A stretch of DNA of 64,000 nucleotides from an uncultured Clostridia bacterium. Its GTDB lineage: Bacteria > Bacillota > Clostridia > Christensenellales > DTU072. The notes beneath the pieces were generated by a model, which did no database searches, was not told the DNA's origin, and worked only from the letters and a program-made list of their open reading frames with translations. Made by a program: the position numbers and the translations under genes. Below, piece after piece: positions 9,427 to 27,154 of this stretch; the stretch's first letter is position 1; each line of letters begins with the position of its first letter. The DNA lies in contig CAKQTC010000012.1 of the NCBI GenBank assembly GCA_934274515.1, positions 3,723 to 67,722 on the forward strand, given 5' to 3'.

Positions 9427-10431
9427 TTGTGGTATCAAGAGTGTAAAGTTTACTCCGACGGCAGTCACTATATCGCTATTCCTCATACTACGAGGAAGGT
9501 CAAAAAAGCTACGCCCAAGCCGGAAGAACTTATAACCGTCGTGGAGAAAAAGGAGCAGACCGACGCTAAGGATACGGAACAAAAACAAGATACTACAAAA
9601 AAGCAAGAAAATATAGATAAGGAAACCAACAATACAAATTCGGCAACCCAAGAACGGCAAATGACAAGAAAAGAGCTGTTTGAAGAATTGTATGAGAAAA
9701 GTAAAAATATGCCTAAGCGTAGCCGTAGGAAATATATACTTGACGAAATGAAAAAATACTTTACGAATGCCCAATGGGCTGCCGATTACGTTGACGAAAA
9801 TATAGCAAGAAAACGTCGTAATTTAATATGCCGTCGTGTAAGATTATGCCGCAAAGTCAACCTCGCCGACTTCAACTATTTCTGCACCTTCACCTATGAC
9901 GGTAAGAAGCTGACGGAAGAAGAATTCCAAAGCAAGCTAAGAACTTGTTTTAAGATGCTATGTCATAGAAAGCATTGGAGATATGTCGGAGCGTGGGAGC
10001 GATCCCCCGAAAAACACCGCTTGCATTTTCATGGATTATTCGATATTCCCGATGGTACGTTACCGGGCGAAATAATTGAAGTAAACGACTATTCTCCGAT
10101 AAAAAAGAGAGTGCAAAAAACATACCAATGCACATATTTTAACGAGCGTTTCGGAAGGTCTGATTTTAGCAAAATCGACACTAACGCAACTCTCGGAGCG
10201 GCTGTTGCTTACCTCATAAAATACATTGAAAAGTCCGGTGAAAAAATAGTGTATAGCAAGAACCTTCCGCAGTTCTTCATAAGTGACATTAACGAAGATG
10301 ATGTCATCTGCAACATAGGACAGGAAGAAAAGAAACTACTTCTCTTTGACGATTTCACCTGTTGGGACGAAGGAGAATACGTCGGACCCGTCAGCGACGA
10401 AACGATAGCGAAACTACGCAAATCTAATTAG
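9427..10431 (+). CDS. rolling-circle replication initiator (HUH endonuclease, phiX174 gpA-type)
   Basis: Motif 1 FCTFTYD, HUH motif LHFHGLF, double-Tyr motif YLIKYIEK (compare phiX174 gpA YVAKYVNK); TTG start after caagggggtgaaataa. Confidence 0.7.
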   Translation: MWYQECKVYSDGSHYIAIPHTTRKVKKATPKPEELITVVEKKEQTDAKDTEQKQDTTKKQENIDKETNNTNSATQERQMTRKELFEELYEKSKNMPKRSRRKYILDEMKKYFTNAQWAADYVDENIARKRRNLICRRVRLCRKVNLADFNYFCTFTYDGKKLTEEEFQSKLRTCFKMLCHRKHWRYVGAWERSPEKHRLHFHGLFDIPDGTLPGEIIEVNDYSPIKKRVQKTYQCTYFNERFGRSDFSKIDTNATLGAAVAYLIKYIEKSGEKIVYSKNLPQFFISDINEDDVICNIGQEEKKLLLFDDFTCWDEGEYVGPVSDETIAKLRKSN

Positions 10432-10571
10432 AGCATATAGCGTAATATATCGGCGTTAAAAACGATGAGAATAAACTGACGAAGAAGGCGGGCTGATCCA
10501 CAAGCGGGTTAGCGTGGACAGCCGCCTCGCAGTTTTCTCGTTTTAGCGATATAGCGGTTTGCCTAATAGTA

Positions 10572-10627
10572 GCGTGTGCTTGTCGCCGGAGCGAAGCGAC
10601 GGCTCTCGTATCAAGACAAGCACACGC
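10572..10627. repeat. 13-bp perfect-stem hairpin in a GC-rich pocket between rep and the recombinase gene
   Basis: gcgtgtgcttgtc (10572-10584) and gacaagcacacgc (10615-10627) are exact reverse complements, with a 30-nt loop. Confidence 0.6.
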
Positions 10628-10692
10628 CACGGTTGCAATCAAGGGATTTTGATAAAATATCCCTACCCTGAAAACAGGATAAGGAGATTAAA

Positions 10693-11607
10693 ATGAAATA
10701 CATAGAATGGTTAAATACTTGGCTCAGCATTTATGTTAAGCCTACGGTAAAATCACAAACGTATATGCGGTATGAACATATAGCGAAAACTCACCTTGCA
10801 AGAGGGTTGGGTGAATATGAATTAGACGAGCTTTCGGCATTGCTATTACAAAAATTTGTCGTTAGCTTATCGGAAGAAAAACATTTGGCAAGCAATACGG
10901 TAAATTCCATAATTACCGTTATTCAAAAGTCACTCCAAGTGGCAGTAAATGTCGGTGTAGTAACGGCTGAATATTCAAATAAAATTCAACGCCCGAAAAC
11001 AGTAGAAAAAGCGGTGGAAAGTTTTAGCGAAAAAGAACAAAAAGAGATTGAGGCATTTGTATTGAAAAATCAGAAAAATAGTAAACTTTTCGGAATAATT
11101 TTATGCCTATACAGCGGACTGCGTATTGGAGAATTGTTGGCGTTAAAATGGGAAGATATTGATTTTTCAAGAGGAATTATGACTATTTCGAGGTCGTGTC
11201 ACGACGAATACAAGGATGGGAAATTGCTTAAAGTATATGATACTCCGAAAACGAAAACTTCCATAAGAACGATACCTATTCCCAAGCAGATAATTCCGCA
11301 CTTAAAACAAATAAAAAAGAAATCGGATAGCGAGTATGTTGTCAGCGACAAAAATGATATAGGCATAAGAAGTTATCAAAAGACGTTTGAGTGCATACTA
11401 AGGAAATTACATATTCCCCGTAAAGGCTTTCACGCTCTCCGCCACACCTTTGCCACTCGTGCGATAGAATGCGGAATGGATGTAAAAACACTGTCGGAAA
11501 TTTTGGGACATAAAAACCCCGAAATTACTCTAAAACGTTATGCACACAGTATGCTTGAACACAAGGCGGAAATGATGAATATCGTCGGAAAGAAGCTGTT
11601 TCAATAG
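10693..11607 (+). CDS. tyrosine site-specific recombinase (304 aa, no arm-binding domain)
   Basis: N-terminal SAM-like core-binding domain; catalytic signatures GLRIGELLALKWEDID, HALRHTFATRAIE, LGHKNPEITLKRYAH. Confidence 0.85.
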   Translation: MKYIEWLNTWLSIYVKPTVKSQTYMRYEHIAKTHLARGLGEYELDELSALLLQKFVVSLSEEKHLASNTVNSIITVIQKSLQVAVNVGVVTAEYSNKIQRPKTVEKAVESFSEKEQKEIEAFVLKNQKNSKLFGIILCLYSGLRIGELLALKWEDIDFSRGIMTISRSCHDEYKDGKLLKVYDTPKTKTSIRTIPIPKQIIPHLKQIKKKSDSEYVVSDKNDIGIRSYQKTFECILRKLHIPRKGFHALRHTFATRAIECGMDVKTLSEILGHKNPEITLKRYAHSMLEHKAEMMNIVGKKLFQ

Positions 11608-11617
11608 TGTTGAATTA

Positions 11618-11646
11618 TTGCAAAAAGACAAGGATTATGGTATAAT
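11618..11646 (+). promoter_or_regulatory. sigma-70-type promoter for the KilA-N gene
   Basis: TTGCAA (11618-11623), 17 nt, TATAAT (11641-11646). Confidence 0.5.
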
Positions 11647-11674
11647 ACAACTAGCATTTGTATAGGAGTTTTTT

Positions 11675-12487
11675 ATGTCAACCAAAGAGATAATAGTAAA
11701 GGGAATCGACGTTAGATACAACAAGATCAATAACGAGGATTTTATATGTCTTACCGATATTGCCAAAGCAAAGAATCCCGATCATTCCGGTATAGTTATA
11801 ACGCATTGGCTTAGAAATTACTCGACGATAGAGTATCTCGGTTTGTGGGAGACGTTACACAATCCCGATTTTAATGTAACCGAATTCGGTAACTTTAAAA
11901 ATAAGTCCGGAGAAAATTCTTTTGTGTTGACGGCACAGGATTGGATAGATAAAACAAACGCTGTCGGGCTAATATCAAAGAGCGGGCGCTACGGCGGGAC
12001 ATATGCTCATAGAGATATAGCTTTTAAGTTTGCGAGTTGGATTTCGGTAGAATTTGAATTGTATTTAATTACCGAATTTCAAAGATTGAAAGTTGAAGAA
12101 CAAAAAGAACTCGAATGGAATGCAAAACGTGAGCTCGCCAAGCTCAACTATCACATTCATACCGATGCAATTAAGGAAAATATCGTTCCGACTTTGTCCG
12201 AAGAACAGTTAAAATATGTCTATGCCAACGAAGCGGATGTTCTGAACGTGGCGCTGTTCGGAAAAACGGCGAAGGAGTGGCGTGACGAAAATCCGGACAA
12301 GAAGGGCAATATTCGTGATTATGCTTCTGTGGAGCAATTACTTGTTATCGCAAATATGGAGAGCTATAACGCTATTTTAATAGAGCAAGGCGTGCCTCAA
12401 AGCGAACGCTTAAAACAGCTTAATATTATGGCAAGGAACCAACTGAAAATTTTTCAGAATCAGGATATGAGTCGGTTCATAGATTAA
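11675..12487 (+). CDS. KilA-N domain-containing protein
   Basis: N-terminal pattern IIVKGIDVRY...DFICLTDIAKAK...WLRNYSTIEYLGLWE...GRYGGTYAHRDIAFKFASWISVEFELYLI is typical of KilA-N family proteins. Confidence 0.7.
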   Translation: MSTKEIIVKGIDVRYNKINNEDFICLTDIAKAKNPDHSGIVITHWLRNYSTIEYLGLWETLHNPDFNVTEFGNFKNKSGENSFVLTAQDWIDKTNAVGLISKSGRYGGTYAHRDIAFKFASWISVEFELYLITEFQRLKVEEQKELEWNAKRELAKLNYHIHTDAIKENIVPTLSEEQLKYVYANEADVLNVALFGKTAKEWRDENPDKKGNIRDYASVEQLLVIANMESYNAILIEQGVPQSERLKQLNIMARNQLKIFQNQDMSRFID

Positions 12488-12512
12488 AAATTGTCAAAAC
12501 GCGCAATTTTTG

Positions 12513-12540
12513 AAAAACGGTAGAATTTTCTACCGTTTTT
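12513..12540. terminator. bidirectional rho-independent terminator
   Basis: acggtaga/tctaccgt 8-bp stem with a 4-nt loop, A-run upstream and T-run downstream. Confidence 0.6.
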
Positions 12541-12583
12541 GCATTTTTTGACTGTTTTCAAACCGTTTTTTCGTGCTAAAAAA

Positions 12584-12611
12584 AGTTCATCAATTAACAT
12601 AATTTATGAAC
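12584..12611. repeat. left 28-bp inverted repeat (IR-L) of the candidate invertible promoter
   Basis: agttcatcaattaacataatttatgaac is the exact reverse complement of 12723-12750. The repeat is internally quasi-palindromic (GTTCAT...ATGAAC), like a recombinase core site. Confidence 0.9.
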
Positions 12612-12623
12612 CATTACACTTTG

Positions 12624-12652
12624 ATTGTATTTAATAATATAATGTTTGTCAA
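12624..12652 (-). promoter_or_regulatory. near-consensus sigma-70 promoter inside the IR-flanked segment, pointing away from the giant gene
   Basis: The minus strand reads TTGACA (12652-12647), a 17-nt spacer, then TACAAT (12629-12624). Confidence 0.55.
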
Positions 12653-12722
12653 CATTTTACCGATAAAAAATACAGCAATTAGTTCATTTTTCTCCAGATT
12701 TATGAACCGGCGCCTTAATTTA

Positions 12723-12750
12723 GTTCATAAATTATGTTAATTGATGAACT
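12723..12750. repeat. right 28-bp inverted repeat (IR-R)
   Basis: gttcataaattatgttaattgatgaact matches the reverse complement of IR-L at 28/28 positions; lies 40 nt upstream of the giant gene start codon. Confidence 0.9.
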
Positions 12751-12790
12751 AATAATAAACGCAAAATTCATCAATCGGGAGATGTGAAAT

Positions 12791-15700
12791 ATGAAAAAAT
12801 TCGGTAAAATTATGGTGGTTATAGGCTTGCTTTCAATGGTGATTGTTGCTATGGTAGCCTGTAACGGATTCAAGGTAGGCATTAGATTTATGGTAGACGA
12901 CGAGGTTTATCGTGAATTTAAAACAACCGGCAGCGAGGTTATCGAAATGCCCGAAAGTCCGACGAAAGAAGGATACGTTTTCCGTGGTTGGTTTTTTGAC
13001 CCCGGAATATGGCAACAGCCGTTTACGGTAAATTCGTTCCTCGATCAGCCGATAAGCGATATAATTTATATTCACGCTTATTTTATTACGCAGGAAGAAG
13101 CGGACAGCATTAAGACGGTGACGTACAACGCTATGGACGGTAGCGCGGTCGACAGCGTAGAGGTAAAAATAGGCAACAGGCTTTCCGAACCGACGACTCC
13201 GACAAAAGACGGATATATTTTCATAGGCTGGTTTACTACAGCCGATTTTGCCGAAAAGTGGAATTTCACGTCCGGCATAGTCAATTCTGATATAACGCTT
13301 TATGCAAAGTGGGTAGAGGATATCCCCGAAAACCGTACTTACACCGTCGCGTTTAACGCTAACGGCGGAAGCAGCGTCGATAATTATACCGAGATCGCCT
13401 ACAACGCGCTTATCGCAAAGCCTCTCAACCCCGAAAAGGACGGCTACGCGCTTGCAGGCTGGTACACCGACAATACCTTTGCAAAGGAATGGAATTTCGA
13501 ACTCGATAAAGTAACTGATAATATAACTTTGTACGCGAGATGGGAACAAGCCGACGTCACCGCTTGCAGTATTATCAAAAGCGAGGGCTTTAATAAAATC
13601 GAAAACGACGGCGAAATCGAATTGTATATAAAGGTTCCCAACGCACAGGAAAAATTCTCTTTCCTAAATAAAATAGAAGTAAGCCCCTTTGCCTCTTGGA
13701 AAGTAGTCAACGACTTACAAGGAAAAGACGAGGTGCCGAGCGGGACTGTGGAAATATCCGTCGGCGATAACGTAAAATACATACTTGTGACGTCCTATGA
13801 CGGAACACACAAAAAGTTTTATAAAGCGACCGTTAGACGCAGACCTATGTATCAAGTGTCCGTCAATCCGAACAACGGCGAAGATATCGACGTTATGACC
13901 TTGGAAGAGGATTCTTTAATCGACGGCGATTATTTAAGGAAAGGTTATATAATAGATAAATTTATATATATAGAAAACGAAGAAGAAAAAGAATGGAATA
14001 TAGCGGAAGACGTCGTAACGAAGAATATTTCCATTGACGTCGTTTGGAGAGCGGCAAACTATTCCGTGACTTTCGATTCCGACGGCGGTAGCAAAGTCGA
14101 AAACGCGGAGATAGACTATGACGGGGAGTTCTCTTTCGGAGTCCCCGAAAAACTCGGATACGATTTTGTCGGTTGGGCTTATAACGATATTCTCATAACC
14201 GACGGACAGGGTAAAGGTCTTGCCGTTTGGAACATAGACAAAGAAAAAATAGAACTGAAAGCCGTTTGGCAAGCGACGGTCTATTCAGTTTCTTACGGCA
14301 ATTTGAAAGGCGCAACAAATACCAATGCCGCAAGTTATACTATCGAAACGTCCGTTACTTTTGCGGATATAGCCCAAGAGGGATACACCTTTATCGAATG
14401 GCAAGACGAAAAAGGCGAAAAAATAACGGAAATATCCGAAGGAAACACGGGCAATAGAACGATAACGGCGGTATGGAATTTGATAGGATATAAAGCGACG
14501 TTCAAAGCCGACGGCGCAGTCTTGTCGGTCGTTGATTTCAACGTGGAAACGGAACAAGTAACCGAACCGACTATCCCCGAAAAAACAGGATATACGCACG
14601 CATACGAAGAATATTCTTTCGTTGCTCGCGATATTACCGTAAATGCCGTCTATACTCCCATAGTTTACACCATTACTTACGCCAACGTAAGCGGAAATTA
14701 CGATATAGACGCGCCCGTAAACGGCAACCCGACAACGTATACTATCGAAACCCCGACGATAACGCTTCAAAATGCAAGCAAATCGGGATATACTTTTGCA
14801 AATTGGACTGTCGGCAATGATGCAATAACGCAAATTCCTCTCGGCTCTTACGGAAATAAAACGATAAAAGCTAATTGGAACGCTATCGAATATAAGGTCG
14901 CTTTCGTTATGGAAAATGCCGACGGAGAGTACGAAGGACACTACGAAAGCGAAGAAAATCCTACGACTTACACAATCGAGGACGCGTTTACCTTTATAGA
15001 GCCCGTTTGCGATATCCTCGGTTATGATTTCAAAGGCTGGTACACTACGAAAAACGAAGAAGGTGTAAAAGTGGAAAAAATCGGTGCGAAAACTACCGGC
15101 AATAAAACGTTCTACGCACAGTGGCATAGGATTGACTATACCATTAATTACGTAGGCGTGGACGGCGGCTACAACGACAATCCCGATACATACAACGTCG
15201 AATCGGACACCATCACTTTGGATAATCCGACCAAAAACGGTTATACTTTTGTAGGTTGGTTCACCGACGAGAGCAAGACCGTTGCGGCGACGCCGATTGC
15301 TACGGGAAGCGTCGGCAATCTTACGTTCTTTGCTAAGTGGGATATAATAACCTATACCGTTACTTACATACTTTATGACGGCACGAACGACGCGAGCAAT
15401 CCGAGCAATTACAATATAGAGAGCAACCTTGCTCTAAAAAATCCGACGAAAGAGGGCTATAGCTTCGGCGGTTGGTTCACAAACGCAGACTTTAACGAAG
15501 AAATTAAGTCCATTGCGCCCGGAATGAGCGGCAGCCTTACCTTATACGCAAAGTGGTACTATGTCGGGACGATTACTTTCGTGACCAACGGCGGCAGCGC
15601 GATAGCTCCCGTTACGCAGGAATACGGCACGGCTATTAAAAAACCCGCCGACCCGACCAGAAATTATTACACCTTTGACGGTTGGTACGAGGACAGCGAT

Positions 15701-18700
15701 TTTGGCAAAGTCTATACTTTCGGCGCAATGCCCGATAAGGATTTCAACGTATACGCCAAGTGGACTCCCGTCGAATATACAATAAGGTACGTTCTCGGCG
15801 AGGGCGCACAAAACAGTAAAAACAACGTCGCCAAATACAACGTCGAGACGGTATTTACCTTCGAAGCGGCGGAAAAAGAAGGGTACTCCTTCAACGGCTG
15901 GTTCACCGACGACAAATTCACTACTGCGGTCGTAAGCGAAATAGTCGCAGGCACGCACGGCGATATGACTCTGTATGCCAACTTTATAATCAATAAATAT
16001 ACTATTACGTTTAATACCGACGGCGGTAGTGCGGTTACGGAAATAACCCAAGATTTCCACACCGTGGTAGATAAACCGGCTGATCCCTTTAAGACGGGAT
16101 ATGATTTTGTCGGTTGGTACTCCGACGTAAATTTGACCAAAGCGTATACCTTCGACAGAATGCCTGCAAAAGACTTCACGCTTTACGCTAAATGGAATCT
16201 CGTAAACTATAAAATAGAATACAATTTATCCGGCGGCACTAATAATAGTAGCAATCCGTCTTCGTATACCGTACTGTCGAATACCGTTACTCTCGGCGCG
16301 CCGACAAAGAAAGGCTATACTTTCGCCGGGTGGTATAAAGACGGCGGTTATACCGAAAGTTTCGTCTCCATTCCGAGCGGTAGCTACGGCACGGTAGCGG
16401 TGCATGCAAAATGGGAGATTATTACCTATACCGTTACTTATGTGGGAATAGACGGCTTGGACAATGAAAACCCGACGACGTATACCGTCGAGGACGCAGT
16501 GACTTTCGTCGAGATAGCTAAGATCGGATATACCTTTGACGGACTGTTTAAAGAAAGTGCATTTATCAATACGGTAAGCGGCATACCGCAAGGCTCCGTC
16601 GGCAACGTTACCGTGTACGCAAAATATACCGTCAACACCTATACCGTCTGGATAGACGGCAAGGAAGAAATGATATATACCGTGTCATTCAATCTCAACG
16701 GAGCAGGCGGCGATATCGCTTCGCAGGTGATAGAAGAGGGAGTAAGCCTTACCTATCCGATGGTACCGACAAGAAGCGGCTATATCTTCGGCGGTTGGTA
16801 CGAAAAAGAAGATTGTTCGGGAATGGCTTACGACTTTACGCAATTCGTTTTGAAAAATACCGTTCTTTACGCTAAATGGATAGCGACGAGCAATTCTACC
16901 GTAAATATCGGCGATACGCGCGAGGTAAACATCGACGGAACGAAATACTTTACTTACGATTTCGTGCCTCTCGTCAGCGGCAACGTGACTTTGGCTACGA
17001 CGGGCAGCGTGGATACCTTTGGTTATCTCTATGAAGAGGACGTCCTCGTGAAAACCAACGACGACGGCGCAACCGACAGCAACTTCGTAATCGTCTACAA
17101 CGTCACCGCAGGCAAAAAATATACCGTCAAATTCCGTGGCTACGGCAAGGGGAATACGGGAAGCGCGACCTTCCATATAAGCGGATACAATACGGTAAGC
17201 GAAGGCGGTACCGCTATATACGGCGGCAGTACGGCAGAGCTTACTTTCGACGCTCCGTTTACTTTGACCGTTCCTGCCGAAAGAGACGGCTATGTCTTCA
17301 GAGGCTTCGTCGACGAAAACGGTACGTTCTATACCGACGATAAAGGCAAAAGTATAAAAAATTGGGACAAGGGCGAAGACTCGGCCATGTTCTCCTATTG
17401 GGAGGTAGACGGCTTCAAAATCAATTTCGTCACCAACGGCGGAACGGCTGTCGAAACGGTTACGCTGCCCAAAGGCGCTCGCGTAAATATCAACAATTAC
17501 GTTACGACGAGAAGCAACTATTCTTTCCTCGGTTGGTTCCTCTCCGCAAGCGATAGCGATAGCTACAACGCTAGCGTAATGCCCGATAGGGATATTACGC
17601 TGTACGCAAAGTGGACGGCTTACGCGCTCAACGCCATTAAATATGACGAAACGTTAAAGGCTATCCCTGCCGAGGGCGACCTCACCGCCGATTATTTCGG
17701 CGCGACGTGCTTCGATAACGGCGGCAATCAAGTAGAGGTTACTGCCTCCGCTAGCACAAGAACCGTCGGCGCAACCGCTACCGTGAGACTTACCGCGACG
17801 AATGAAGGAAAGACAAAAACCGCTACCGTCTCTGGCGTCAAAGTCTACGGCGAGCCTACGCTTGCTTTCGATAATACGGTAAACTATGTTAATCTGAAAG
17901 ACGGTTTTCAAGCAAGTTGGTTTACAGCAAGCGGAACCGACACCTTCGACGCGGCTACCGAAATAAGGGTGAGAGTAGACGGCGAATATAAAGCCGGCGA
18001 TATAGTGACCGTAATTATAGAGTCCGTCGATATAGCCGGCAATATTAAGAGCGGAACTGTAGAAAACGTCAAGCTCTACGGCTTGCCCGTGATTACGCAC
18101 AATGAAGAGAAAAATGAAATAAGCGTAAACGATACGATAGACGCAAGCTTGTTTAACGCAACCGCTACCGACAGCTTCGGCGAAAGCTTGACGGTAACGG
18201 TAACGAAGAAGAGCGGAACAATATCAGCGGGCAATACGATTACTCTTACCTTTACCGCTACCGACGGCAAAGGCAACGTAATGACGTTCGATAAGGATGT
18301 CAAAGTGTACGGCGCGCCGACAATCTCCGACGCTGAAAAGACGGAATTTAAAGTCGAGGACGAAATAACGGTAGATACCCTCGGACTTACCGCAAATGAC
18401 ACTTTCAACGGACAGTTGGATATCACGCTTACCGTAAAGAGCGGAACGCAAACGGCAGGAGTTACGATGGTCTTTACCGCTACCGTTACCGATATAAGCG
18501 GCAACGTGACCAATAAGGATATATGGGTAAGAATCTATGGTACGCCTACCATAACGTATGATAGAAATGCCCTTAAAACAACCGAAGATCCGACGTTCTC
18601 AAGCAAAGAAGCTACTGTCTCGTTTAATCTTAACGGCGCAAGCGGAACTGCGCCCGCAAGCCAAACCGTCACCGATACGGTAGGGCTTGAATATCCGGCA

Positions 18701-21262
18701 ATTCCGACAAGAGACGGTTATGTATTTAAAGGTTGGTACACCGATTCCGCTTGCAGTACGTTGTTTGACTTTAGCAAAAACGTAGAAGAAGATATGACGG
18801 TATATGCAGGTTGGGTATCTTACAACGGCGCCGGGTATATTGTTTACAACGGCAGTAAGTCGGTAAGCGTTATTTCCAAATCTTCGGCAGGTTCGAATTA
18901 TGACTACGCATTCGTACCTCTCGTCAGCGGAACGGTGACGATTTACAGTACGGGCAGTCTCGATACTTACGGTTACCTGTACAGTAGTACAAAATCGCAA
19001 CTCGCAACCGATGATGATGGCGGAGACGGAAGTAATTTCCAAATTACTTATTCAGTGACGGCAGGAACTCTCTATTATATCCGTCCTTGCGGATATGACG
19101 GTAGCGGCAGCACTACCGTTTATGTCAAAGGCAATATGCCCACGGCAGGCGGAAAAGGATCTAAAATTATTTCCGGTGCAAAAGATTATCTCAACGCTAT
19201 GGCTACCGATAGTTTCGGCAATCCGCTTATGGTGACAGCTGTCTTGAAGAGCGGCGAATCTGTAGGCGGAAAGTACGCGACGTATACTCTGACCGCGACG
19301 GACAAACTCGGCAACGTCGCTACCATAAATACGGCGGCTATCCCCGTCTATGACAGAGCGGAGATAGAAATGACTTACGATCCGTTCGGAACGAATAGCA
19401 TAAAATACAATTCCGCAGGAGAAGAGTTTAACGCAGTCGCCACCGACAGCTTCGGAAACGCTTGCGTAATAACGATAGAAAAAGCTGACGGCGGCGCGAT
19501 TGTCGCAGGACAAACTCAAAATATCGTCATCGTCGCTACCGACCTTGCCGGGAATAGATATTTAAGCGATTCGATAGCCGATATCAAGGTCTACGACATG
19601 CCGACGATTGCTTACGCGCACGATTACCTCTACGTTACGGCTGGCGACAATATCGACTTTATGTTTACGGCAAAAGATAGCTTCGGCGAGGAGATATCTG
19701 CCGAAGCGACTAAGGTTAGCGAAACGGCAGATATCTTGACGGTAAAGGTGACGGCTACCGACGACGCGGCTAATAAAGCGGAAAGAGAATACGAATTGAT
19801 AAAAATAGCTTCGGGCGAATCATATCTTGCGCTTATGTTCAACGGCGAACAAATCGGCTATGCAAAGGTAACGAACGGAGCAAATTATGAATTACCGCAC
19901 GAGTTTACCGGCTATACCTTTATCGGTTGGTATTTAGATAGCGCCAAGCTTACGGGTAGCGACGGCGAAAGCCTGTCGACCTGGGATAAGCCCGATGGCT
20001 ATTACGTCCTTACCGCTTCGGCTACCATAATCAACTATAATATAACCTACGTCCTTAACGGTGGAGAAAACTCAAGCAACAATCCCGCGACGTTTACCGT
20101 CAACAATCTTGGTTTTGCGCTGGAAAATCCGTCTAAAGTAACCGAAAAAACCGTTCTTCCATTGGAATATATTGTCGACGGTACGTTCCGTCAAACGGTA
20201 AGACAGATCGCGTATACCTTCCTCGGTTGGTACACCGACAGCGATTGGACAAATACGATATCAACCGTCTCTTCCGTCGGCAATATTACGGTCTACGCCA
20301 AATGGAGCGAAACTACCTCTGCTACTATTACTACTACGATATCTGCCTATATGCGCGAAGGAAGCTATATCTATTTCGGCTCCTATCCGCAGACGCTCGT
20401 AAGGGACAGCGCGCTCTCTTCTGCTTTGGGTTCATACAGTTCTAACACGTGGACAAGTTACGGTTATTATAAAAACGGAAGCATAAGCAATTATATGTAC
20501 TACACCGACAAGGAATATAACGGTGAAAAGTACAGAGGAGTTTACTTTACCGAAAAGAGACCGTATTATACAACAGGTTCGAATATAGGTAGTACGCCTA
20601 ACAATTGGGCATACGATATAGTAAGCAGTAGTAACTATAAAACATACAATACGTCCACCGTATATTGGTTCAAATACGAACCTATTAAATGGAAGATAGT
20701 AAAAGAGCAAAGCGGATATGCGACGTTGGTAGCCGATCTCATTCTCGACAGTCAGAATTATTATATAAGCGATACGACAAGTCAAACGACGAGAACCGAC
20801 TATCAAGGCAACAGTGCAAGCGCATACAGTAACAACTATCAATACAGCACGATAAGAACGTGGCTAAACGTTACTTTCTACGAGACGGCGTTTACCGATT
20901 TGCAGAAAGCGTTAATTCAAACCACAACTGTAGATAACAGCGTATCGAGTACAGGATATAGTAGTAACAACTATGCCTGCGGCAACACTAACGACAAGAT
21001 ATTCTTACTGTCCTATCAAGAAGCAAATACATATTTCGGAAGTAATAGCGCAAGGCAAAAGAAGAGTACCGACTACGCAAAGAGTCAAGGACTGTGGACA
21101 AATACCGATAGTTACTTAGGCAACGGTTATTGGTGGCTTCGTTCGCCTAACTACTTTTATAGCTACCCCTCGCGCCGCGTCGACCGCGACGGGTCGTTCG
21201 ACTCCATTGGCGTCAATTACACTATGGTCGGGGTTGTGCCCGCTTTGGTGATAAGGCTGTAA
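12791..21262 (+). CDS. giant surface lipoprotein (2,823 aa) and DGR target protein: about twenty Listeria-Bacteroides-type repeats, Ig-like repeats, two PPC-like domains and a C-terminal C-type-lectin-fold variable domain
   Basis: Lipobox signal MVVIGLLSMVIVAMVAC; reiterated GY.F.GW....(F/W).....TLYAKW units; repeated ATDSFG...TATD...VKVYG.PTI units; C-terminus GYWWLRSP...GVVPALVIRL overlaps the VR. Confidence 0.85.
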   Translation: MKKFGKIMVVIGLLSMVIVAMVACNGFKVGIRFMVDDEVYREFKTTGSEVIEMPESPTKEGYVFRGWFFDPGIWQQPFTVNSFLDQPISDIIYIHAYFITQEEADSIKTVTYNAMDGSAVDSVEVKIGNRLSEPTTPTKDGYIFIGWFTTADFAEKWNFTSGIVNSDITLYAKWVEDIPENRTYTVAFNANGGSSVDNYTEIAYNALIAKPLNPEKDGYALAGWYTDNTFAKEWNFELDKVTDNITLYARWEQADVTACSIIKSEGFNKIENDGEIELYIKVPNAQEKFSFLNKIEVSPFASWKVVNDLQGKDEVPSGTVEISVGDNVKYILVTSYDGTHKKFYKATVRRRPMYQVSVNPNNGEDIDVMTLEEDSLIDGDYLRKGYIIDKFIYIENEEEKEWNIAEDVVTKNISIDVVWRAANYSVTFDSDGGSKVENAEIDYDGEFSFGVPEKLGYDFVGWAYNDILITDGQGKGLAVWNIDKEKIELKAVWQATVYSVSYGNLKGATNTNAASYTIETSVTFADIAQEGYTFIEWQDEKGEKITEISEGNTGNRTITAVWNLIGYKATFKADGAVLSVVDFNVETEQVTEPTIPEKTGYTHAYEEYSFVARDITVNAVYTPIVYTITYANVSGNYDIDAPVNGNPTTYTIETPTITLQNASKSGYTFANWTVGNDAITQIPLGSYGNKTIKANWNAIEYKVAFVMENADGEYEGHYESEENPTTYTIEDAFTFIEPVCDILGYDFKGWYTTKNEEGVKVEKIGAKTTGNKTFYAQWHRIDYTINYVGVDGGYNDNPDTYNVESDTITLDNPTKNGYTFVGWFTDESKTVAATPIATGSVGNLTFFAKWDIITYTVTYILYDGTNDASNPSNYNIESNLALKNPTKEGYSFGGWFTNADFNEEIKSIAPGMSGSLTLYAKWYYVGTITFVTNGGSAIAPVTQEYGTAIKKPADPTRNYYTFDGWYEDSDFGKVYTFGAMPDKDFNVYAKWTPVEYTIRYVLGEGAQNSKNNVAKYNVETVFTFEAAEKEGYSFNGWFTDDKFTTAVVSEIVAGTHGDMTLYANFIINKYTITFNTDGGSAVTEITQDFHTVVDKPADPFKTGYDFVGWYSDVNLTKAYTFDRMPAKDFTLYAKWNLVNYKIEYNLSGGTNNSSNPSSYTVLSNTVTLGAPTKKGYTFAGWYKDGGYTESFVSIPSGSYGTVAVHAKWEIITYTVTYVGIDGLDNENPTTYTVEDAVTFVEIAKIGYTFDGLFKESAFINTVSGIPQGSVGNVTVYAKYTVNTYTVWIDGKEEMIYTVSFNLNGAGGDIASQVIEEGVSLTYPMVPTRSGYIFGGWYEKEDCSGMAYDFTQFVLKNTVLYAKWIATSNSTVNIGDTREVNIDGTKYFTYDFVPLVSGNVTLATTGSVDTFGYLYEEDVLVKTNDDGATDSNFVIVYNVTAGKKYTVKFRGYGKGNTGSATFHISGYNTVSEGGTAIYGGSTAELTFDAPFTLTVPAERDGYVFRGFVDENGTFYTDDKGKSIKNWDKGEDSAMFSYWEVDGFKINFVTNGGTAVETVTLPKGARVNINNYVTTRSNYSFLGWFLSASDSDSYNASVMPDRDITLYAKWTAYALNAIKYDETLKAIPAEGDLTADYFGATCFDNGGNQVEVTASASTRTVGATATVRLTATNEGKTKTATVSGVKVYGEPTLAFDNTVNYVNLKDGFQASWFTASGTDTFDAATEIRVRVDGEYKAGDIVTVIIESVDIAGNIKSGTVENVKLYGLPVITHNEEKNEISVNDTIDASLFNATATDSFGESLTVTVTKKSGTISAGNTITLTFTATDGKGNVMTFDKDVKVYGAPTISDAEKTEFKVEDEITVDTLGLTANDTFNGQLDITLTVKSGTQTAGVTMVFTATVTDISGNVTNKDIWVRIYGTPTITYDRNALKTTEDPTFSSKEATVSFNLNGASGTAPASQTVTDTVGLEYPAIPTRDGYVFKGWYTDSACSTLFDFSKNVEEDMTVYAGWVSYNGAGYIVYNGSKSVSVISKSSAGSNYDYAFVPLVSGTVTIYSTGSLDTYGYLYSSTKSQLATDDDGGDGSNFQITYSVTAGTLYYIRPCGYDGSGSTTVYVKGNMPTAGGKGSKIISGAKDYLNAMATDSFGNPLMVTAVLKSGESVGGKYATYTLTATDKLGNVATINTAAIPVYDRAEIEMTYDPFGTNSIKYNSAGEEFNAVATDSFGNACVITIEKADGGAIVAGQTQNIVIVATDLAGNRYLSDSIADIKVYDMPTIAYAHDYLYVTAGDNIDFMFTAKDSFGEEISAEATKVSETADILTVKVTATDDAANKAEREYELIKIASGESYLALMFNGEQIGYAKVTNGANYELPHEFTGYTFIGWYLDSAKLTGSDGESLSTWDKPDGYYVLTASATIINYNITYVLNGGENSSNNPATFTVNNLGFALENPSKVTEKTVLPLEYIVDGTFRQTVRQIAYTFLGWYTDSDWTNTISTVSSVGNITVYAKWSETTSATITTTISAYMREGSYIYFGSYPQTLVRDSALSSALGSYSSNTWTSYGYYKNGSISNYMYYTDKEYNGEKYRGVYFTEKRPYYTTGSNIGSTPNNWAYDIVSSSNYKTYNTSTVYWFKYEPIKWKIVKEQSGYATLVADLILDSQNYYISDTTSQTTRTDYQGNSASAYSNNYQYSTIRTWLNVTFYETAFTDLQKALIQTTTVDNSVSSTGYSSNNYACGNTNDKIFLLSYQEANTYFGSNSARQKKSTDYAKSQGLWTNTDSYLGNGYWWLRSPNYFYSYPSRRVDRDGSFDSIGVNYTMVGVVPALVIRL
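21125..21247 (+). other. DGR variable region (VR), in frame at the C-terminus of the target gene
   Basis: 123 nt homologous to the TR at 21821-21946. The flanks are identical and the internal differences fall almost only at TR adenines. Confidence 0.85.
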
Positions 21263-21271
21263 AACAGCCTT
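21253..21271 (+). other. hairpin immediately 3' of the VR (DGR cruciform-like element)
   Basis: aaggctg-taaaa-cagcctt, a 7-bp stem, starts 5 nt after the VR end and spans the stop codon. Confidence 0.5.
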
Positions 21272-21396
21272 AAATCACCGTTAATCACGGCGAAGCAAAA
21301 TCATCGGCAAGGGGAAGAAACGGCGTTTTGCGCCCTTCCCCGAAGCCGTAAAGGGCGATTGAAACCGCGTAAGCGGTCGAAAAATTTTTTGATAAA

Positions 21397-21774
21397 ATGC
21401 AAAAGAAAAACGACCTATTTGTAATAACAAAAACAAAAGATATAGCTAAGTATATAATAACGGTGACGGAAAAAAGCCCGAAAAAGTTTCGTTATACGCT
21501 AACGACGAAATTGCAGAATTTTGCATTGGACGCGCTGGAATATTTGTATTTAGCCAACACCGAGAGTTTGGGGGAGAAGAGAGAGAATTTACAAAAGGAG
21601 GCGAGAACAAAATTATCTTTATTAGACTACTTTGCCGGACTTGCCGCCGAACAGGAATGTATACTTTTTAAGCAATATGAGTTTATTTCGAAAGAAGTCG
21701 CTTCGGCAATAATGTATCTCGACAAGTGGAGAGCAAGCGACAAAAAAAGGGTATCTACGACGGTATCGTCGTAA
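21397..21774 (+). CDS. avd: DGR accessory variability determinant (Avd-like four-helix-bundle protein)
   Basis: 125 aa, helical, basic; lies between target and TR as in canonical DGRs; sequence pattern ...KYIITVTEKSPKKFRYTLTTKLQNFALDALEYLYLAN... is typical of four-helix-bundle Avd proteins. Confidence 0.7.
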   Translation: MQKKNDLFVITKTKDIAKYIITVTEKSPKKFRYTLTTKLQNFALDALEYLYLANTESLGEKRENLQKEARTKLSLLDYFAGLAAEQECILFKQYEFISKEVASAIMYLDKWRASDKKRVSTTVSS

Positions 21775-21820
21775 TGATATAAGTGAAGCGTTATTAACAA
21801 AATGCGTTTTCGCTATTTGC

Positions 21821-21946
21821 GGTTATTGGTGGCTTCGTTCGCCTAACAACAATAATAGCAACAACGCGCGCAACGTCAACAACGACGGGTCGTTAGACAA
21901 CAACAATAACGTCAATAACACTAATAACGGGGTTGTGCCCGATTTG
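21821..21946 (+). other. DGR template repeat (TR)
   Basis: 126 nt built from runs of AAC/AAT codons (conceptual translation GYWWLRSPNNNNSNNARNVNNDGSLDNNNNVNNTNNGVVPDL); matches the VR ends exactly. Confidence 0.85.
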
Positions 21947-22151
21947 TTTCTCACTCGTATTGCTATGGCAAGCGAGGAAGAACGGTAAAGAGGCTGAGGT
22001 AAGTACCTCATGCACAGTACTCGAAACAAAGGAACGCTTCACTTTCCCGTAGTGCAATCTGCGGGAAAATCAACCGGCGGACGGCGCGACTTAGGAAATA
22101 ATTTGCGCCCGTGAGTAAAATCCCGTCGGTTTTTTTAATGGAAAATGTAGA

Positions 22152-23243
22152 ATGATTAAAATGCAAGAAAGTACTTTTGACGAAATAATATCCTTTGAGA
22201 ATTTATATAAAGCGCACCGCAGGGCGAGATTAGGCAAGCGGCATAAAAAAGAGGTTATTGAATTTGAGATGAATCTTTCGGAAAATTTATGGCAGCTTCA
22301 TTATGACCTCAAATACGGAAGATATCAAATAGGCGGCTATCACAAATTTATGATATACGACCCGAAAGAAAGGGAAATACAAGCGATATCGTACCGTGAC
22401 CGAGTAGTCCAGCATACGCTTTGCGACAATTTTCTTATACCTCTTATGGAAAGGAAGCTGATTTACGACAACGGAGCGTGCCGCAAAGAAAAGGGCACGC
22501 ATTTTGTTATCGGAAGATTGAGAAAATTTATGACCGAACATTATAAAAAATACGTTACGTCGGGATATTTTGTCAAAATGGACGTTAAAAAATATTTTGA
22601 CAGCATAGATCACAATAAACTTAAAAACTTACTAAATAAAGAAATAGCCGAAGAAAAAATCAAGAAACTCGTATTTTCCGTAATAGACAGTTATTGTTTT
22701 ATCGAAAATAAGGGACTGCCAATGGGCAATCAGTCTAGTCAATGTTTTGCGCTTTATTATTTGGATGAGGTTGATAGATTTATTAAAGAAAAGCTAAAAA
22801 TCAAATATTATATTCGTTATATGGATGATATGATTGCGATAACTCCCGACAAAACAAGCGCAAACTTATGCTTGGAAGCGGTTTCCGAAAAGTTAATAGA
22901 AAAGAATTTGCAAATGAATGTGAAATCGCAAGTGGTTGCTATAAAAAACGGCATTAATTTTTTAGGATGGCATTTTCGATTCGGAGAAAACGGAAAAATA
23001 TTGCAAACCATACGGAAGCAATCTTTATTAAGAATGAAAACAAAACTAAAAGAAACGATTTTGCTTTTAAAAAAACATAAAATTTCGAAGAAGAGATTAA
23101 TACAATCGCAAAACAGTCTTAAAGGACATCTCGAAAAAGGCAACGCTTACAAAATCTTAAACAATTTGATTAAGGATTTTATAATTAATAAAAGTGTCCA
23201 TAAAAATTATATCAGTCTCTATAAAAAAGCCCAGACTCCGTAA
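22152..23243 (+). CDS. DGR reverse transcriptase
   Basis: RT motifs: PKEREIQAISYRDRVVQH, FVKMDVKKYFDSIDH, GLPMGNQSSQCFALYYL (DGR-type SQ motif), YIRYMDDMIAI (YMDD). Confidence 0.85.
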   Translation: MIKMQESTFDEIISFENLYKAHRRARLGKRHKKEVIEFEMNLSENLWQLHYDLKYGRYQIGGYHKFMIYDPKEREIQAISYRDRVVQHTLCDNFLIPLMERKLIYDNGACRKEKGTHFVIGRLRKFMTEHYKKYVTSGYFVKMDVKKYFDSIDHNKLKNLLNKEIAEEKIKKLVFSVIDSYCFIENKGLPMGNQSSQCFALYYLDEVDRFIKEKLKIKYYIRYMDDMIAITPDKTSANLCLEAVSEKLIEKNLQMNVKSQVVAIKNGINFLGWHFRFGENGKILQTIRKQSLLRMKTKLKETILLLKKHKISKKRLIQSQNSLKGHLEKGNAYKILNNLIKDFIINKSVHKNYISLYKKAQTP

Positions 23244-23605: not shown

Positions 23606-24922
23606 TTAAGCCGCTATTTTTTTAATTGTTTTGTTTGCGTAAGGTAGCCATACTTTGTTTATAAAATTGGCTGTTTGCTCGTCCGGCATACAGTTATATA
23701 AGCCATGTGTTTGCAGTATTTTATGTTCTGCCGGTGAATATTCAACGGTTATATACGGCTTTTCTATTTGGTCTTTGATACGAATAAAGAATATTAAACT
23801 ATCTTCCCTAATAAATTTTTGGTCGTAACCCATTTTCCCGACGCAATGATGCAATTCTTCGCCTTCCCGGAAAAGCTCTTGCGGAGATTTTGCTATGATA
23901 CATACAAAGTTGTAATTGCCGTCATATTGCAAGGCTTTATATTTATCGGCGACCTCTGCGAACATTGAATATAATTCCTTTTGTTTTAATACATCTAACT
24001 TAGCCTTAGCTGTTTTTTGTTCGTCAATGCGAATATCGTGCCACCTCTTAAAATCGTGAGGGAAGAGATTTTTATTCTCATTCATATTTAATTTTAGATA
24101 GTTGCAAGCGACAACATAATCGTGATAAGAGGACAAAGATATATGGTTTGCTTTAAGAAATTTTACAAGTTTATACCTATCTATCTTAGGAACTTCTCGC
24201 AGAACTAATTTATATGTAAAATCGTGTGCATATTCGAGCAATAGTTCTTTATTCGCTTGAAGGGTTTTCAACGGTTTACCCGTCTTGTACGATTTTATGA
24301 TTATATCAACGTAGTAATAATTCTTCATTAGTTCCTGTTTATGTTGCAATAACCATTTAGGAAAATTCTTGTCTTTTTGAATTTGTTTCAGTATTGTTTT
24401 GCTCATTGCAATTTGATTTAGACCTGCTTTGACAAGATATTCGATAAAAGGATATTGTTCGTACAGGCGAAGATATTGAATAACGTCTGTCTTTGTTTGT
24501 AGTTCAACGGCGCTGTAACGATATGCAGGCAGTTTTTGAAGATAGTCGAAATTTACGACTGGAGCGTACATATCGAACATTCTGTCATATTGCCAGCCCC
24601 ATTCTTTGTCCTCGTACCATTTAGGGTATTTTGATAATCCTTCCTCATACCATCCGACACGATAACCGGCGAGTCTGGTATATAGCATATCTTTAATAAA
24701 GCATCTATCGCTATGTATCCCATGTATTGCACACTGTTTGTAATACCACTTTTTGCTTCGATTTCTTACGGCAACCGTAACCTTAACAAGCTCGCCGTTG
24801 TTTTTGGTTAGGTAAGAGTAGTATCTTGTTGATTTATCTTGGTCGGGATTATCTTTTAAGTTTGTCTCTTTTATTCTTTTTATTATGTACTTAGGTACAG
24901 GTTTTATTTTTGATATTTGCAT
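23606..24922 (-). CDS. PcfJ-like protein
   Basis: C-terminal [16 protein letters not shown]... region resembles the PcfJ domain. Start moved to the ATG at 24922 (gaggtgaaacaATG), not the track start at 24988. Confidence 0.6.
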
Positions 24923-25857
24923 TGTTTCACCTCGATGTCCTTGCCAAAAAGGGCAAGTAATTTGTTTAGAATGATTAGATCGGGACAATTATTTATTTCT
25001 CCCTCGTCGTCCATAATCGGCTCGTTTATATCGCCGTAGAACTGCTGCATTTCTTCTTCGGTCAATTCTTCGATTTCTTCTTCGGACGGAAGGATTTCTA
25101 CTTCTTCGGAATTTTCGGCAACTGCGATTTTGAAGCCTTTATCTAATAGCTTCTTGAAGTAATTGTCGGTAGCGTGATAGGGAATACCGCACATAGGAAC
25201 ACGTTTTTCCAAGCCGCAATCTCTACTTGTAAGAGTCAATTCAAGTTCTCGTGAAGCAGTTACCGCCGAGTCGGCAAAAACCTCATAAAAATCGCCGATA
25301 CGCAGGAATAAAATGCAGTCGGGATATTTGCGTTGTAAATCAAGATATTGTTGATACATAGGCGACGGCTTTTTAGGCTCGGCAATAGGCGTAAATTCCG
25401 TTTTAACGGACTCAACGGGTGTAGTTACTTCTTCTTCCGTTAAGCTGTCGAAAAGGGATAATTGACCCGTATCCGATTTTTTGGGTTTAGGTGTTGTAAC
25501 AACGGGCGGAGTAGTGGAAGTAGGTATCTTCTTCGGAGCAGGCTTATATTCCGTACCGTCAAGATTAAATAATTTACCTTCGATACTATCTTCTTCAAAA
25601 TAGTGCATAGCCCATCCGAATACGACTTCATCTTCTACGCAAGCACAATTAGCGCCCTTTTCGGCTAACTTTCTTGCTTCATCGCTTGCATATTTCATAA
25701 AGCCGGAAAGTGTTTTCTTTGACAACAACTGCTTTCCGTTTTTTTCTATCTGAACGCCGTTATTTATTTTTTCGGCGAGATACTCCGTAGCGTTTTCTTC
25801 CAGATACGCTTTGAGTATTTCCTGCTCTTTTGTTTCTGTTGCTAAGTTTATTTGCAT
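24904..25857 (-). CDS. PcfK-like N-terminal domain fused to a MutS domain I (mismatch-binding) homologue
   Basis: N-terminus ...[10 protein letters not shown]...[19 protein letters not shown] is PcfK-like. C-terminus [34 protein letters not shown]...[29 protein letters not shown] matches the MutS N-terminal domain, including the GDFYE mismatch-contact motif. Confidence 0.65.
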
Positions 25858-25859
25858 TT

Positions 25860-26117
25860 TTAATTCTCCTTAATTGAAGAAAGGTCATCCGAGAACGGAC
25901 AACCTTTCCATAGTTTTGTATATTCTTTAAGCGTTCTGACTTCTTTAACTTCCCATTCCGGTTTACGGAGTTTAGACGGCGGCTCTCTTTCATACCACCG
26001 AATATGCCATATAGCGGAACCGAGTCTGTTTGTTACGAGATATACCTTAAATTTTGATTTGCCGTATTCTCGGTAACAAACTTTATACCCGTATTTATTA
26101 TTTGTTTCCATAGGCAT
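25860..26117 (-). CDS. hypothetical protein (85 aa)
   Basis: Co-oriented ORF overlapping its upstream neighbour by a few codons. Confidence 0.4.
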
Positions 26118-26304
26118 TTTCCTTTATTATTCCGTAAACATCATCTGCGTAAAATTCGCAGGTAAACCAGTTAAAAATGGCGGTGCATTTCACACCGCCG
26201 TATTCAACTATGTATTGATTGTCACCTTGCTTTTCCAACATGGTTATTTCATCCATTTCCCCGTGCTTGCTGTATATATGTGCCATTACCTTGTATGGTT
26301 TCAT
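26098..26304 (-). CDS. hypothetical protein (68 aa); truncated paralogue at 62949-63086
   Basis: RBS ggaggtaacctaatATG; N-terminus MKPYKVMAHIYSKHGEM matches MRPFKTMAHINSLGGKM at the second locus. Confidence 0.45.
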   Translation of the reverse strand: MKPYKVMAHIYSKHGEMDEITMLEKQGDNQYIVEYGGVKCTAIFNWFTCEFYADDVYGIIKENAYGNK

Positions 26305-26318
26305 ATTAGGTTACCTCC

Positions 26319-26720
26319 TTAAAATGTTCTGACAAGTCCGCCGAATTGCATCTTTATCCCGATGCTTCCGAATTCCGAGCAAGTATCGTCGCTTACGTTT
26401 ACTACATAAGAGCAGATATAACCGCTTTTCAGGTCATCACGGTCATATTCCCATTCTTCTCTATACTTGGACACATAGAGTAGAGAATACAATTCTCCAA
26501 ACTCGGTATAGTTGTGAATAACGTGATAGACGGCTGCGCCGTATTCGGCTTCGAAAGTTCTAACCATTTTCTGTTCCTTTTCGTCCAGCCAATAGAGTAT
26601 TCCGCCGTGTTCCGACTTGTTGATGACGTCCTCTTCTTCAAATTCCTTAATTACTTGTGGATAGAGCTTGAGGGTTTTCATTCTTTTGATAGCTTCTTGT
26701 TTTTGTGTAGTTCTTTGCAT
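26319..26720 (-). CDS. hypothetical protein (133 aa); paralogue at 63098-63505
   Basis: Collinear similarity to the second copy (KQEAI.RMK.LKLYP..IKEFE....GG.LYWL....VYHVIHN.TEFGE...EEWEYDR.DLK.GY...SDD.CSEFG...QFGGLVRT). Confidence 0.5.
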   Translation of the reverse strand: MQRTTQKQEAIKRMKTLKLYPQVIKEFEEEDVINKSEHGGILYWLDEKEQKMVRTFEAEYGAAVYHVIHNYTEFGELYSLLYVSKYREEWEYDRDDLKSGYICSYVVNVSDDTCSEFGSIGIKMQFGGLVRTF

Positions 26721-26740
26721 TGTTTTTATCTCCTTTATGA

Positions 26741-27154
26741 TTAAATGTAGTCTTGTAGTGTTTCGAAGTTCAGCCCGACGTTTCTAAGTGTTTCTTCAAA
26801 GCCGAACCAAGCGAGTAAATTTTGGTTATATACGTCGTTTCCGAGCGGGTCTTCTTTATCCCATTTATCGCCAAATAGTTCTTTCATAGAATAAATTCCG
26901 GTCTGCTCCATAATTTCATATAATAGGGTGTCGACTTCTTGTTTGTGTTGTTTGTAAAATCTAACCGTATCGCAGCAATAAATAAGGAAGCCAACCGTTC
27001 CCGATTGGCATCCATAATGTAATACGTCTGTAAATATATGTTTTTTATCGTCATAATCATTCCATTTATCTAAAACATAGTTACAGACTCTTTTAGTGAT
27101 TTTACTTTCCGTTTCTTGTTTGATTTTAGTAATGTTTGATTTCGTGAGCTTCAT
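26741..27154 (-). CDS. hypothetical protein (137 aa); paralogue at 63525-63935
   Basis: Shared block DDKKHIFTD.LHYGCQSGTVGFLI....TV.FYK.HK.E.D.LLYE.ME.TG...ELFGDK.DKEDPL.ND.YNQNLLAWFGFEET.RN.G. Confidence 0.5.
   Translation of the reverse strand: MKLTKSNITKIKQETESKITKRVCNYVLDKWNDYDDKKHIFTDVLHYGCQSGTVGFLIYCCDTVRFYKQHKQEVDTLLYEIMEQTGIYSMKELFGDKWDKEDPLGNDVYNQNLLAWFGFEETLRNVGLNFETLQDYI

Follow-up and report, generated by a model that had tools for sequence, protein, structure and literature searches.

A putative invertible promoter in front of a giant surface-protein gene diversified by a DGR in an uncultured Clostridia bacterium

Results and Discussion

The gene for a putative surface protein of 2,823 amino acids, which is the target of a DGR, is preceded in the DNA analyzed here by a pair of perfect inverted repeats that enclose a short segment with a promoter-like sequence, and a gene for a tyrosine recombinase lies further upstream. 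This DNA, a stretch of 64,000 nucleotides from an uncultured Clostridia bacterium, is referred to below as the window. It is very likely, judging from sequence comparisons, that a tyrosine-recombinase-operated inverton controls this giant DGR-diversified gene. The interpretation is carried by the anatomy of the locus, by the same architecture in a family of related loci, by inverted segments in sister loci, and by the signs of an active DGR at the other end of the gene.

Inverted repeats and the segment between them

The two repeats, IR-L and IR-R, have 28-nt arms that are 100% complementary with 111 nt between them, and a search for their 27-nt core in shuffled sequence gave 0 matches in 100 shuffles. 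IR-R ends at 12750 and the ATG of the giant gene is at 12791, which leaves 40 nt between them. A previous reading of this DNA from its letters, referred to here as the sequence-only reading, had described exact 28-bp inverted repeats around 111 bp, 40 nt before the ATG, and all of its coordinates were found to be correct. It had also described each repeat as quasi-palindromic, and indeed each arm reads TCATCAATTA-ACA-TAATTTATGA, where 9 of the 10 arm positions match around ACA. The features of this region are as follows.

12475-12484, plus strand: extra half-site GTTCATAGAT, 1 mismatch, at the end of the KilA-N gene
12513-12540, no strand: terminator hairpin from a terminator scan, 12-pair stem, A-run before and T-run after
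12584-12611, plus strand: IR-L, a putative full core site with two arms of about 10-12 bp and an asymmetric ACA center
12612-12722, no strand: predicted invertible segment, 111 bp, in the OFF orientation
12624-12652, minus strand: sigma-70-type promoter TTGACA-17-TACAAT, 11/12 in a promoter scan, pointing away from the giant gene
12698-12707, minus strand: extra exact half-site GTTCATAAAT, within the 111-bp segment
12723-12750, minus strand: IR-R, a core site identical to IR-L and inverted
12766-12775, plus strand: extra half-site ATTCATCAAT, 1 mismatch, between IR-R and the ribosome-binding site
12777-12782, plus strand: Shine-Dalgarno GGGAGA, 8 nt before the ATG, read from the sequence
12791-21262, plus strand: putative surface protein and DGR target, 2,823 aa, with a signal-peptide-like N-terminus, 17 Listeria-Bacteroides repeats, and a C-terminal DUF6273

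Each 28-bp repeat would be a complete core site in which binding arms of about 10-12 bp, GTTCATCAATTA and TAATTTATGAAC, lie around the asymmetric ACA. Since the two identical sites face each other, strand exchange between them would lead to inversion, and not excision, of the 111 bp. Outside the core sites there are three extra half-sites (12475, 12698, and 12766), all of them copies of GTTCAT(A/C)AAT, and with the four from the core sites they make seven half-site copies inside 300 bp. At the first of these, 12475-12484, a strain variant (L015) reads GTTCATAAAT. Exact half-site matches in the 64 kb number five and all of them are inside 12585-12749. The extra half-sites may be accessory recombinase-binding sites.

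The 27-nt core of the repeat was found nowhere in the 64-kb window beyond the two arms when up to 3 mismatches were allowed, and an exact search with the 27-nt repeat of viral, genome, and JGI metagenome collections gave 0 matches. The window locus is present only in ENA and Logan assemblies, where it was found through exact-protein look-ups. An ORF of 44 aa inside the repeat-bounded region, which would be the same in both orientations, was not on record when it was looked up.

The recombinase and its neighborhood

Upstream of the repeats the following genes are of interest.

454-1062: LexA-like protein
9427-10431: G2P-like rolling-circle Rep (Rep_ORF2-G2P), named from a domain match; other mobile-element genes adjoin it
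10693-11607, plus strand: tyrosine recombinase, 304 aa, putative invertase (Pfam Phage_integrase, 5.9e-26, and an N-terminal SAM-like domain; PHROG 'integrase')
11675-12487, plus strand: KilA-N domain protein (Pfam KilA-N, 2.5e-19; PHROG_2657 'transcriptional regulator', 2.3e-57)

The sequence-only reading had placed a recombinase at 10693-11607, and the Pfam match identifies it as a tyrosine recombinase. Its gene lies 977 bp upstream of IR-L and is intact, and among the invariant columns of a 25-sequence alignment are R144, H247, R250, H273, and Y283, which are candidate catalytic residues by comparison with what is known of this family. At E ≤ 1e-20 the protein has more than 7,400 homologs, which from about the fifth match on are 55-63% identical to it. 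The nearest solved relative is the Tn1549 integrase. When scored against models of known types, the recombinase failed the test for XerC (TIGR02224, 72.8 against a cut-off of 335) and XerD (TIGR02225, 55 against 330) as well as that for the FimB/FimE type (NF007371, 'tyrosine-type DNA invertase', 25.6 bits against a cut-off of 222), and it was also far under the NCBIfam cut-offs for XerA and the integron integrase. Xer/dif dimer resolution was rejected as the function of the sites because the recombinase is under the XerC and XerD equivalog cut-offs. In viral contigs the recombinase family was found at only 2 weak loci and therefore it is essentially not viral.

The 813-bp KilA-N gene separates the recombinase from the switch in the window and is not there in the related loci that were examined. 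Because this gene intervenes here, and in the relatives the recombinase and the repeats are adjacent, the pairing of recombinase and switch in the window is less certain. The recombinase encoded at 10693-11607 is nevertheless most likely the invertase of the segment, as far as gene order and homology can tell, and the KilA-N protein might have some role at the switch. Further upstream, an 11-bp inverted repeat, GTGTGCTTGTC ... GACAAGCACAC, is present at 10575-10630 ahead of the recombinase gene, and two Logan contigs from different runs start inside it at 10609.

The same architecture in relatives

Relatives of the recombinase, 52-58% identical, were surveyed in 80 genome loci, 68 of which had enough downstream sequence, with a detector of repeat pairs that covered the range from 30 bp before to 700 bp after the end of the recombinase gene. 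A comparable inverted-repeat pair was found downstream of the recombinase in 41 of the 68 loci and was not detected in the other 27. The same detector applied to seven control windows in the same loci gave 0-4 pairs in 52-80 loci each. The proposal of the sequence-only reading that a recombinase flips a promoter here is thus the best-supported one, since this layout is shared by the 41 loci and inversions are seen in relatives as described below.

In nearly all of the repeat-bearing loci the distance from the recombinase stop codon to the left repeat is 4-90 nt. The arms are 94-167 nt apart and the next ORF usually begins 5-60 nt past the right arm. The repeats have a common anatomy, with arms of about 10-13 bp that often read ...ATTA-NNN-TAAT... 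and a 3-nt asymmetric center. The repeat sequence itself varies between loci, and within each locus the two arms are complementary. At most of the family loci a single sigma-70-type promoter was found within the region bounded by the repeats. Where there was such a match, the distance between the end of the -10 and the outer edge of one repeat is 19-47 nt in nearly all cases. About 28 of these promoters face the recombinase and about 9 face the downstream gene. The downstream genes code mostly for surface proteins with Listeria-Bacteroides or BspA-LRR repeats.

The closest relative in a different context is L014, whose recombinase is 71% identical and lies between efp and a gene for a 1,185-aa Flg_new protein, in the plain chromosomal context recA-rny-efp. 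Compared to the repeat of the window, its perfect 27-nt repeat carries 4 substitutions, each of which occurs in both arms. The homologous promoter of L014 shares GTTGACAAAC at -35 with that of the window, is on the opposite strand so that it faces the Flg_new gene, and ends 38 nt from the outer edge of IR-R.

Some switches of the family lie in front of genes of another kind, namely those for an SNF2/ResIII helicase, an MmeI-like methyltransferase, and an Hsp70-like protein (L031, L070/L071, and L016). The presence of such defense-type genes behind family switches suggests that there are phase-variable defense systems in these Clostridia.

Promoters, terminator, and the proposed switch

All promoter calls made here are consensus matches only, with a scan threshold of at least 4/6 in each hexamer. 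The sigma-70 consensus was used because the Shine-Dalgarno sequence is strong and because the relatives are MAGs of Christensenellaceae and other Clostridia. The scan confirmed, with 11/12 matches, the minus-strand TTGACA-17-TACAAT at 12652-12624 that the sequence-only reading had picked out. Its -10 ends 40 nt from the outer edge of IR-L, which agrees with the distance seen in relatives for promoters of both orientations. By arithmetic on the segment ends, inversion would place the -10 at 12705-12710 on the plus strand. No recognizable promoter for the giant gene was found in the 40 nt from IR-R to the ATG. The bidirectional terminator proposed at 12513-12540 was also found, as a hairpin with an A-run and a T-run, and it would stop transcripts from the KilA-N gene as well as leftward transcripts from the promoter in the OFF state.

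The switch would work in the following way. The core sites would synapse, and strand exchange in their asymmetric centers would invert the segment and turn the promoter toward or away from the giant gene. In the OFF state the promoter would fire leftward for about 100 nt into the terminator. In the ON state, with the -10 near 12705-12710, the transcript would begin near 12717, so that a leader of about 70 nt with IR-R and the ribosome-binding site in it would precede the ATG. The cassette of Avd, TR, and reverse transcriptase would independently diversify the C-terminal tip of the same protein.

It had also been noted that a weaker plus-strand promoter string, TTACAC-18-TATAAT, is present. The string does exist, with a poor -35, and it falls below the scan threshold. 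Its -10 hexamer at 12638-12643 is a perfect TATAAT on the plus strand of the segment, and it could be giving some expression now, in which case the switch would be high/low rather than ON/OFF. If this is taken further, the segment would invert as a two-state selector, where the giant gene is expressed at a low level from the plus-strand TATAAT, and a leftward RNA of about 100 nt, which is possibly functional, comes from the strong promoter. The terminator sits exactly where such a leftward transcript would end, and a few relatives have a second promoter-like string on the other strand. Against this are the poor -35, the failure of the string to reach the threshold, and the finding that a second promoter is not conserved across the family, and we consider such a selector unlikely. 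The simpler ON/OFF inverton remains our preferred interpretation.

Inversion in sister loci

If the segment is flipped by recombination then both orientations should be found among closely related loci, and this is the case in three comparisons. Between L070 and L071 the flanks are collinear and, as estimated from the alignments, roughly 85-90% identical. The segment itself can be aligned only when one copy is reverse-complemented (score 223, compared to 50 when this is not done). At the P0017 locus the segment is exactly reverse-complemented (0/114 mismatches) in 3 contigs compared to at least 9 others, and at the P0107 locus in 1 contig (0/81 mismatches) compared to 7 others. At each of these two loci the recombinase is identical. 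The minority orientation at P0017 and P0107 is the one that aims a promoter of the type TTGCTT-17-TATAAT at the large gene, and the majority is OFF, like the window. Two contigs, L202 and L194, end 0 nt past the inner edge of IR-L; there is one such contig, from Logan, at P0017 and one at P0107.

The order of genes at P0017 is serine integrase, MarR, Rep G2P, CpXC, tyrosine recombinase, repeat, 114 bp, repeat, and a 2,641-aa Flg_new protein, and downstream of the Flg_new gene at this locus there is no DGR. The right repeat at P0017 is a hybrid whose outer arm is the window half-site TAATTTATGAAC. The P0017 element (L205:4412-19171, the counterpart of 9427-21262 in the window) was found in two chromosomal contexts, L205 and L207. 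It appears that giant adhesin genes with an ON/OFF switch of their own travel on small integrative elements. In the P0107 locus, one assembly (L185:2415-2630) has lost 60 bp, among them part of the segment, the right inverted repeat, and the TATAAT on the strand that faces away from the gene. Such a deletion would lock the switch.

Orientation at the window's own locus

In the ENA and Logan assemblies all 7 contigs of the window locus that read into the segment have it in the OFF orientation and none has it flipped. The sequence-only reading had named related assemblies as one place to look for the flipped orientation, and this was found in the sister loci P0017 and P0107 and not at the locus itself. 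Its view that the switch is OFF as sequenced agrees with the minus-strand promoter, a consensus match only, pointing away from the giant gene.

The ends of some contigs bear on this question. Two Logan k=31 contigs, L007 (ERR7746751) and L015 (SRR25448135, a slightly different strain), end exactly at 12611, which is the last base of IR-L, and a third, L098 (ERR7746751), starts exactly at 12721. The flipped junctions of the window locus would read left flank-IR-L-TAAATTAAGG... and ...GTGTAATG-IR-R-right flank. In a simulated k=31 de Bruijn graph the sequenced orientation alone gives no branch because the 28-nt arms are shorter than k-1. When the k-mers of the flipped left junction were added, the left unitig ended at 12611 and the right one started at 12721, which are the ends observed. 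These contig ends are indirect but specific evidence for reads with the flipped junction in two runs. A false junction of this kind could also come from template switching at inverted repeats while the libraries were prepared. The SPAdes contig L006 also ends at 12721, an end which the inversion model does not explain and which we attribute to low coverage, about 5x.

Alternatives to an inverton

Another explanation is that the recombinase is the integrase of a mobile element and the paired sites are an attachment or resolution site, such as a hairpin attP folded from a single strand, as in elements of the CTX-phi type, or a MITE, a small element with terminal inverted repeats. The CTX-phi-type version fits with the Rep_ORF2-G2P protein at 9427-10431 and the adjoining mobile-element genes, and each repeat resembles a 28-bp dif-like core. 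If this were the case, the sites would not be expected to lie intact inside the locus, as they do, between genes that are linked in all assemblies. In addition, the P0017 element has a large serine recombinase at its edge and the tyrosine recombinase beside the flipping segment, L014 has the same architecture in a plain chromosomal context, and the XerC/XerD scores are far under the cut-offs. An attachment site is very improbable on these grounds. The MITE version was rejected because there are no dispersed copies, either in the window with up to 3 mismatches or as exact matches in the three public collections, and because the position of the repeats is conserved and their sequence is locus-specific.

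That the repeats are operators, at which a repressor (the KilA-N protein or the LexA-like protein of 454-1062) loops the DNA around a fixed promoter, would account for the palindromic sites, the seven half-site copies within 300 bp, and the DNA-binding KilA-N protein encoded immediately upstream, and is scarcely credible because relatives without a KilA-N gene at this place still keep the repeats beside the recombinase, the segment is physically inverted in sister loci that are otherwise identical in sequence, an alternative junction is required to account for the contig breaks at 12611 and 12721, and operators have no need for an asymmetric center in inverted orientation. We thus return to an inverton that is flipped by the tyrosine recombinase.

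The DGR and its target

The elements of the DGR follow at the 3' end of the giant gene.

21124 to about 21245, plus strand: variable repeat (VR), at the 3' end of the giant gene
21397-21774, plus strand: DGR accessory protein Avd (PHROG_3206 'Avd protein of DGR', 2.9e-18)
21820 to about 21941, plus strand: template repeat (TR)
22152-23243, plus strand: DGR reverse transcriptase (Pfam RVT_1; PHROG_1423 'Reverse transcriptase', 1.5e-104)

The Pfam bAvd and NCBIfam DivGenRetAVD matches of Avd are under the curated cut-offs. The TR/VR pair beside the reverse transcriptase and Avd genes is an 82%-identical repeat of 79 nt that extends to about 120 nt, in which nearly all differences fall at TR adenines, and these positions also vary in the VR from one metagenome sample to another. 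The mismatches at TR adenines and the differences in the VR between samples show that the DGR is real and active. Since the putative inverton and the DGR would act on one gene, the lineage would vary both the production of the protein and the binding by its tip.

The VR of the window is 3 nt shorter than the TR and than the VR of other samples (2,823 compared to 2,824 aa). Several Logan contigs (L099-L102) start or end at or beside the VR and the TR, which is consistent with heterogeneity of the VR within a sample or with the TR/VR repeat breaking the assembly graph. A GC-rich hairpin, GGGGAAG...CTTCCCC, is present at 21311-21341, about 65 nt downstream of the end of the VR, and it is similar to the stem-loop found with DGR target sites.

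In the gaps between the giant gene, avd, the TR, and the reverse transcriptase gene (21262 to 22152), neither a plus-strand promoter match nor a terminator was found. It is conceivable, and we put it forward tentatively as something rather doubtful, that the giant gene, avd, the TR, and the reverse transcriptase gene form one unit with the invertible promoter as its main promoter. If this is the case, then flipping of the 111-bp segment would switch mutagenic retrohoming on and off together with the surface protein. Hypermutation would itself be phase-variable, with variants generated only in ON cells and frozen in OFF cells.

To the right of the DGR are PcfJ/PcfK genes, a tRNA-Arg gene (28322-28398), and ordinary chromosomal genes. 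Two contigs that are otherwise about 97-98% identical, L097 and L101, lack a block of 4.08 kb in this part (23647-27729), which holds PcfJ, a PcfK/MutS-I fusion, and several small ORFs. Three Logan contigs end at 28362, inside the tRNA-Arg gene. The block looks like a small insertion/deletion module beside the tRNA that is separate from the DGR locus. A second giant gene (33727-42036, 2,769 aa) lies 12 kb downstream, and its counterpart in a related contig codes for 2,747 aa with Flg_new and LRR domains. No comparable inverted-repeat pair was found upstream of this second gene.

Comparison with known systems

Among the programmed variation systems of gut bacteria, DGRs and invertons are the two best known, and each has been studied apart from the other. 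Invertible promoters before surface-protein genes, and DGRs, are each well known. That no coupling of the two had been described, as was stated in the sequence-only reading, agrees with our literature search of titles and abstracts, in which no paper had both DGR and inverton; a few papers mention both, in body text only, and in one DGR preprint the words inversion, recombinase, and phase variation are absent. The coupling was seen only in the lineage of the window. A search of metagenome contigs starting from the reverse transcriptase found no other DGR preceded by this recombinase among the few loci that reached far enough upstream. If one gene is under both systems, the lineage could keep a costly or immunogenic adhesin of 2,823 aa hidden in most cells while the other cells try out new binding specificities. 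The switch and the VR are 8.5 kb apart, and long reads across this distance could link the state of the switch to the diversity of the VR.

The recombinases and their repeats would make up a large recombinase-plus-inverton family in Christensenellaceae and related Clostridia, of which we found no description. It would serve as a switch for giant surface proteins of the Listeria-Bacteroides-repeat and BspA types and for some defense-type genes, and part of it would travel on small integrative elements. In the literature search no paper mentioned invertons together with Christensenell*, and these host-associated bacteria are hard to culture.

The Xer/dif and CTX-phi systems, the latter with two inverted sites about 90 nt apart, are like the window in their 28-bp core, in which a short central region lies between two binding arms. 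Here the sites flank a promoter beside a gene start, and in the sister loci the segments are inverted and not integrated or excised.

In the fim switch of E. coli, FimB and FimE, which are recombinases of about 200 aa, act on 9-bp repeats around a segment of 314 bp. Common to both are the inversion of a promoter by a tyrosine recombinase in front of a gene for a surface structure, as proposed here, and a recombinase gene near the switch. The window differs in its 28-bp repeats, its 111-bp segment, and its two-domain recombinase of 304 aa.

The DGR of Bordetella phage BPP-1 (mtd-avd-TR-brt) and those of Bacteroides and other gut bacteria have the same order, with a target that carries the VR at its C-terminal end followed by Avd, TR, and reverse transcriptase, and they share with the window the adenine-specific substitutions and the GC-rich hairpin after the VR. 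In the window, unlike in these, a putative invertible promoter lies in front of the target, which at 2,823 aa is very large.

The closest likeness is to the invertons of gut bacteria that have been surveyed by PhaseFinder-type studies, among them the capsule and fimbrial promoters of Bacteroides and the cwpV, flgB, and cmrRST switches of Clostridioides difficile that are flipped by the tyrosine recombinase RecV. These too have short inverted repeats around a promoter segment of about 100-200 bp upstream of a surface-protein or defense gene, a site-specific recombinase nearby, and both orientations in natural populations, which here means in the sister loci. The window is set apart by a recombinase family of Christensenellaceae and other Clostridia MAGs which is outside the FimB/E and XerC/D models, by repeats each of which would be a full palindromic core with an asymmetric center of about 3 nt, and by a controlled gene that is itself the target of a DGR.
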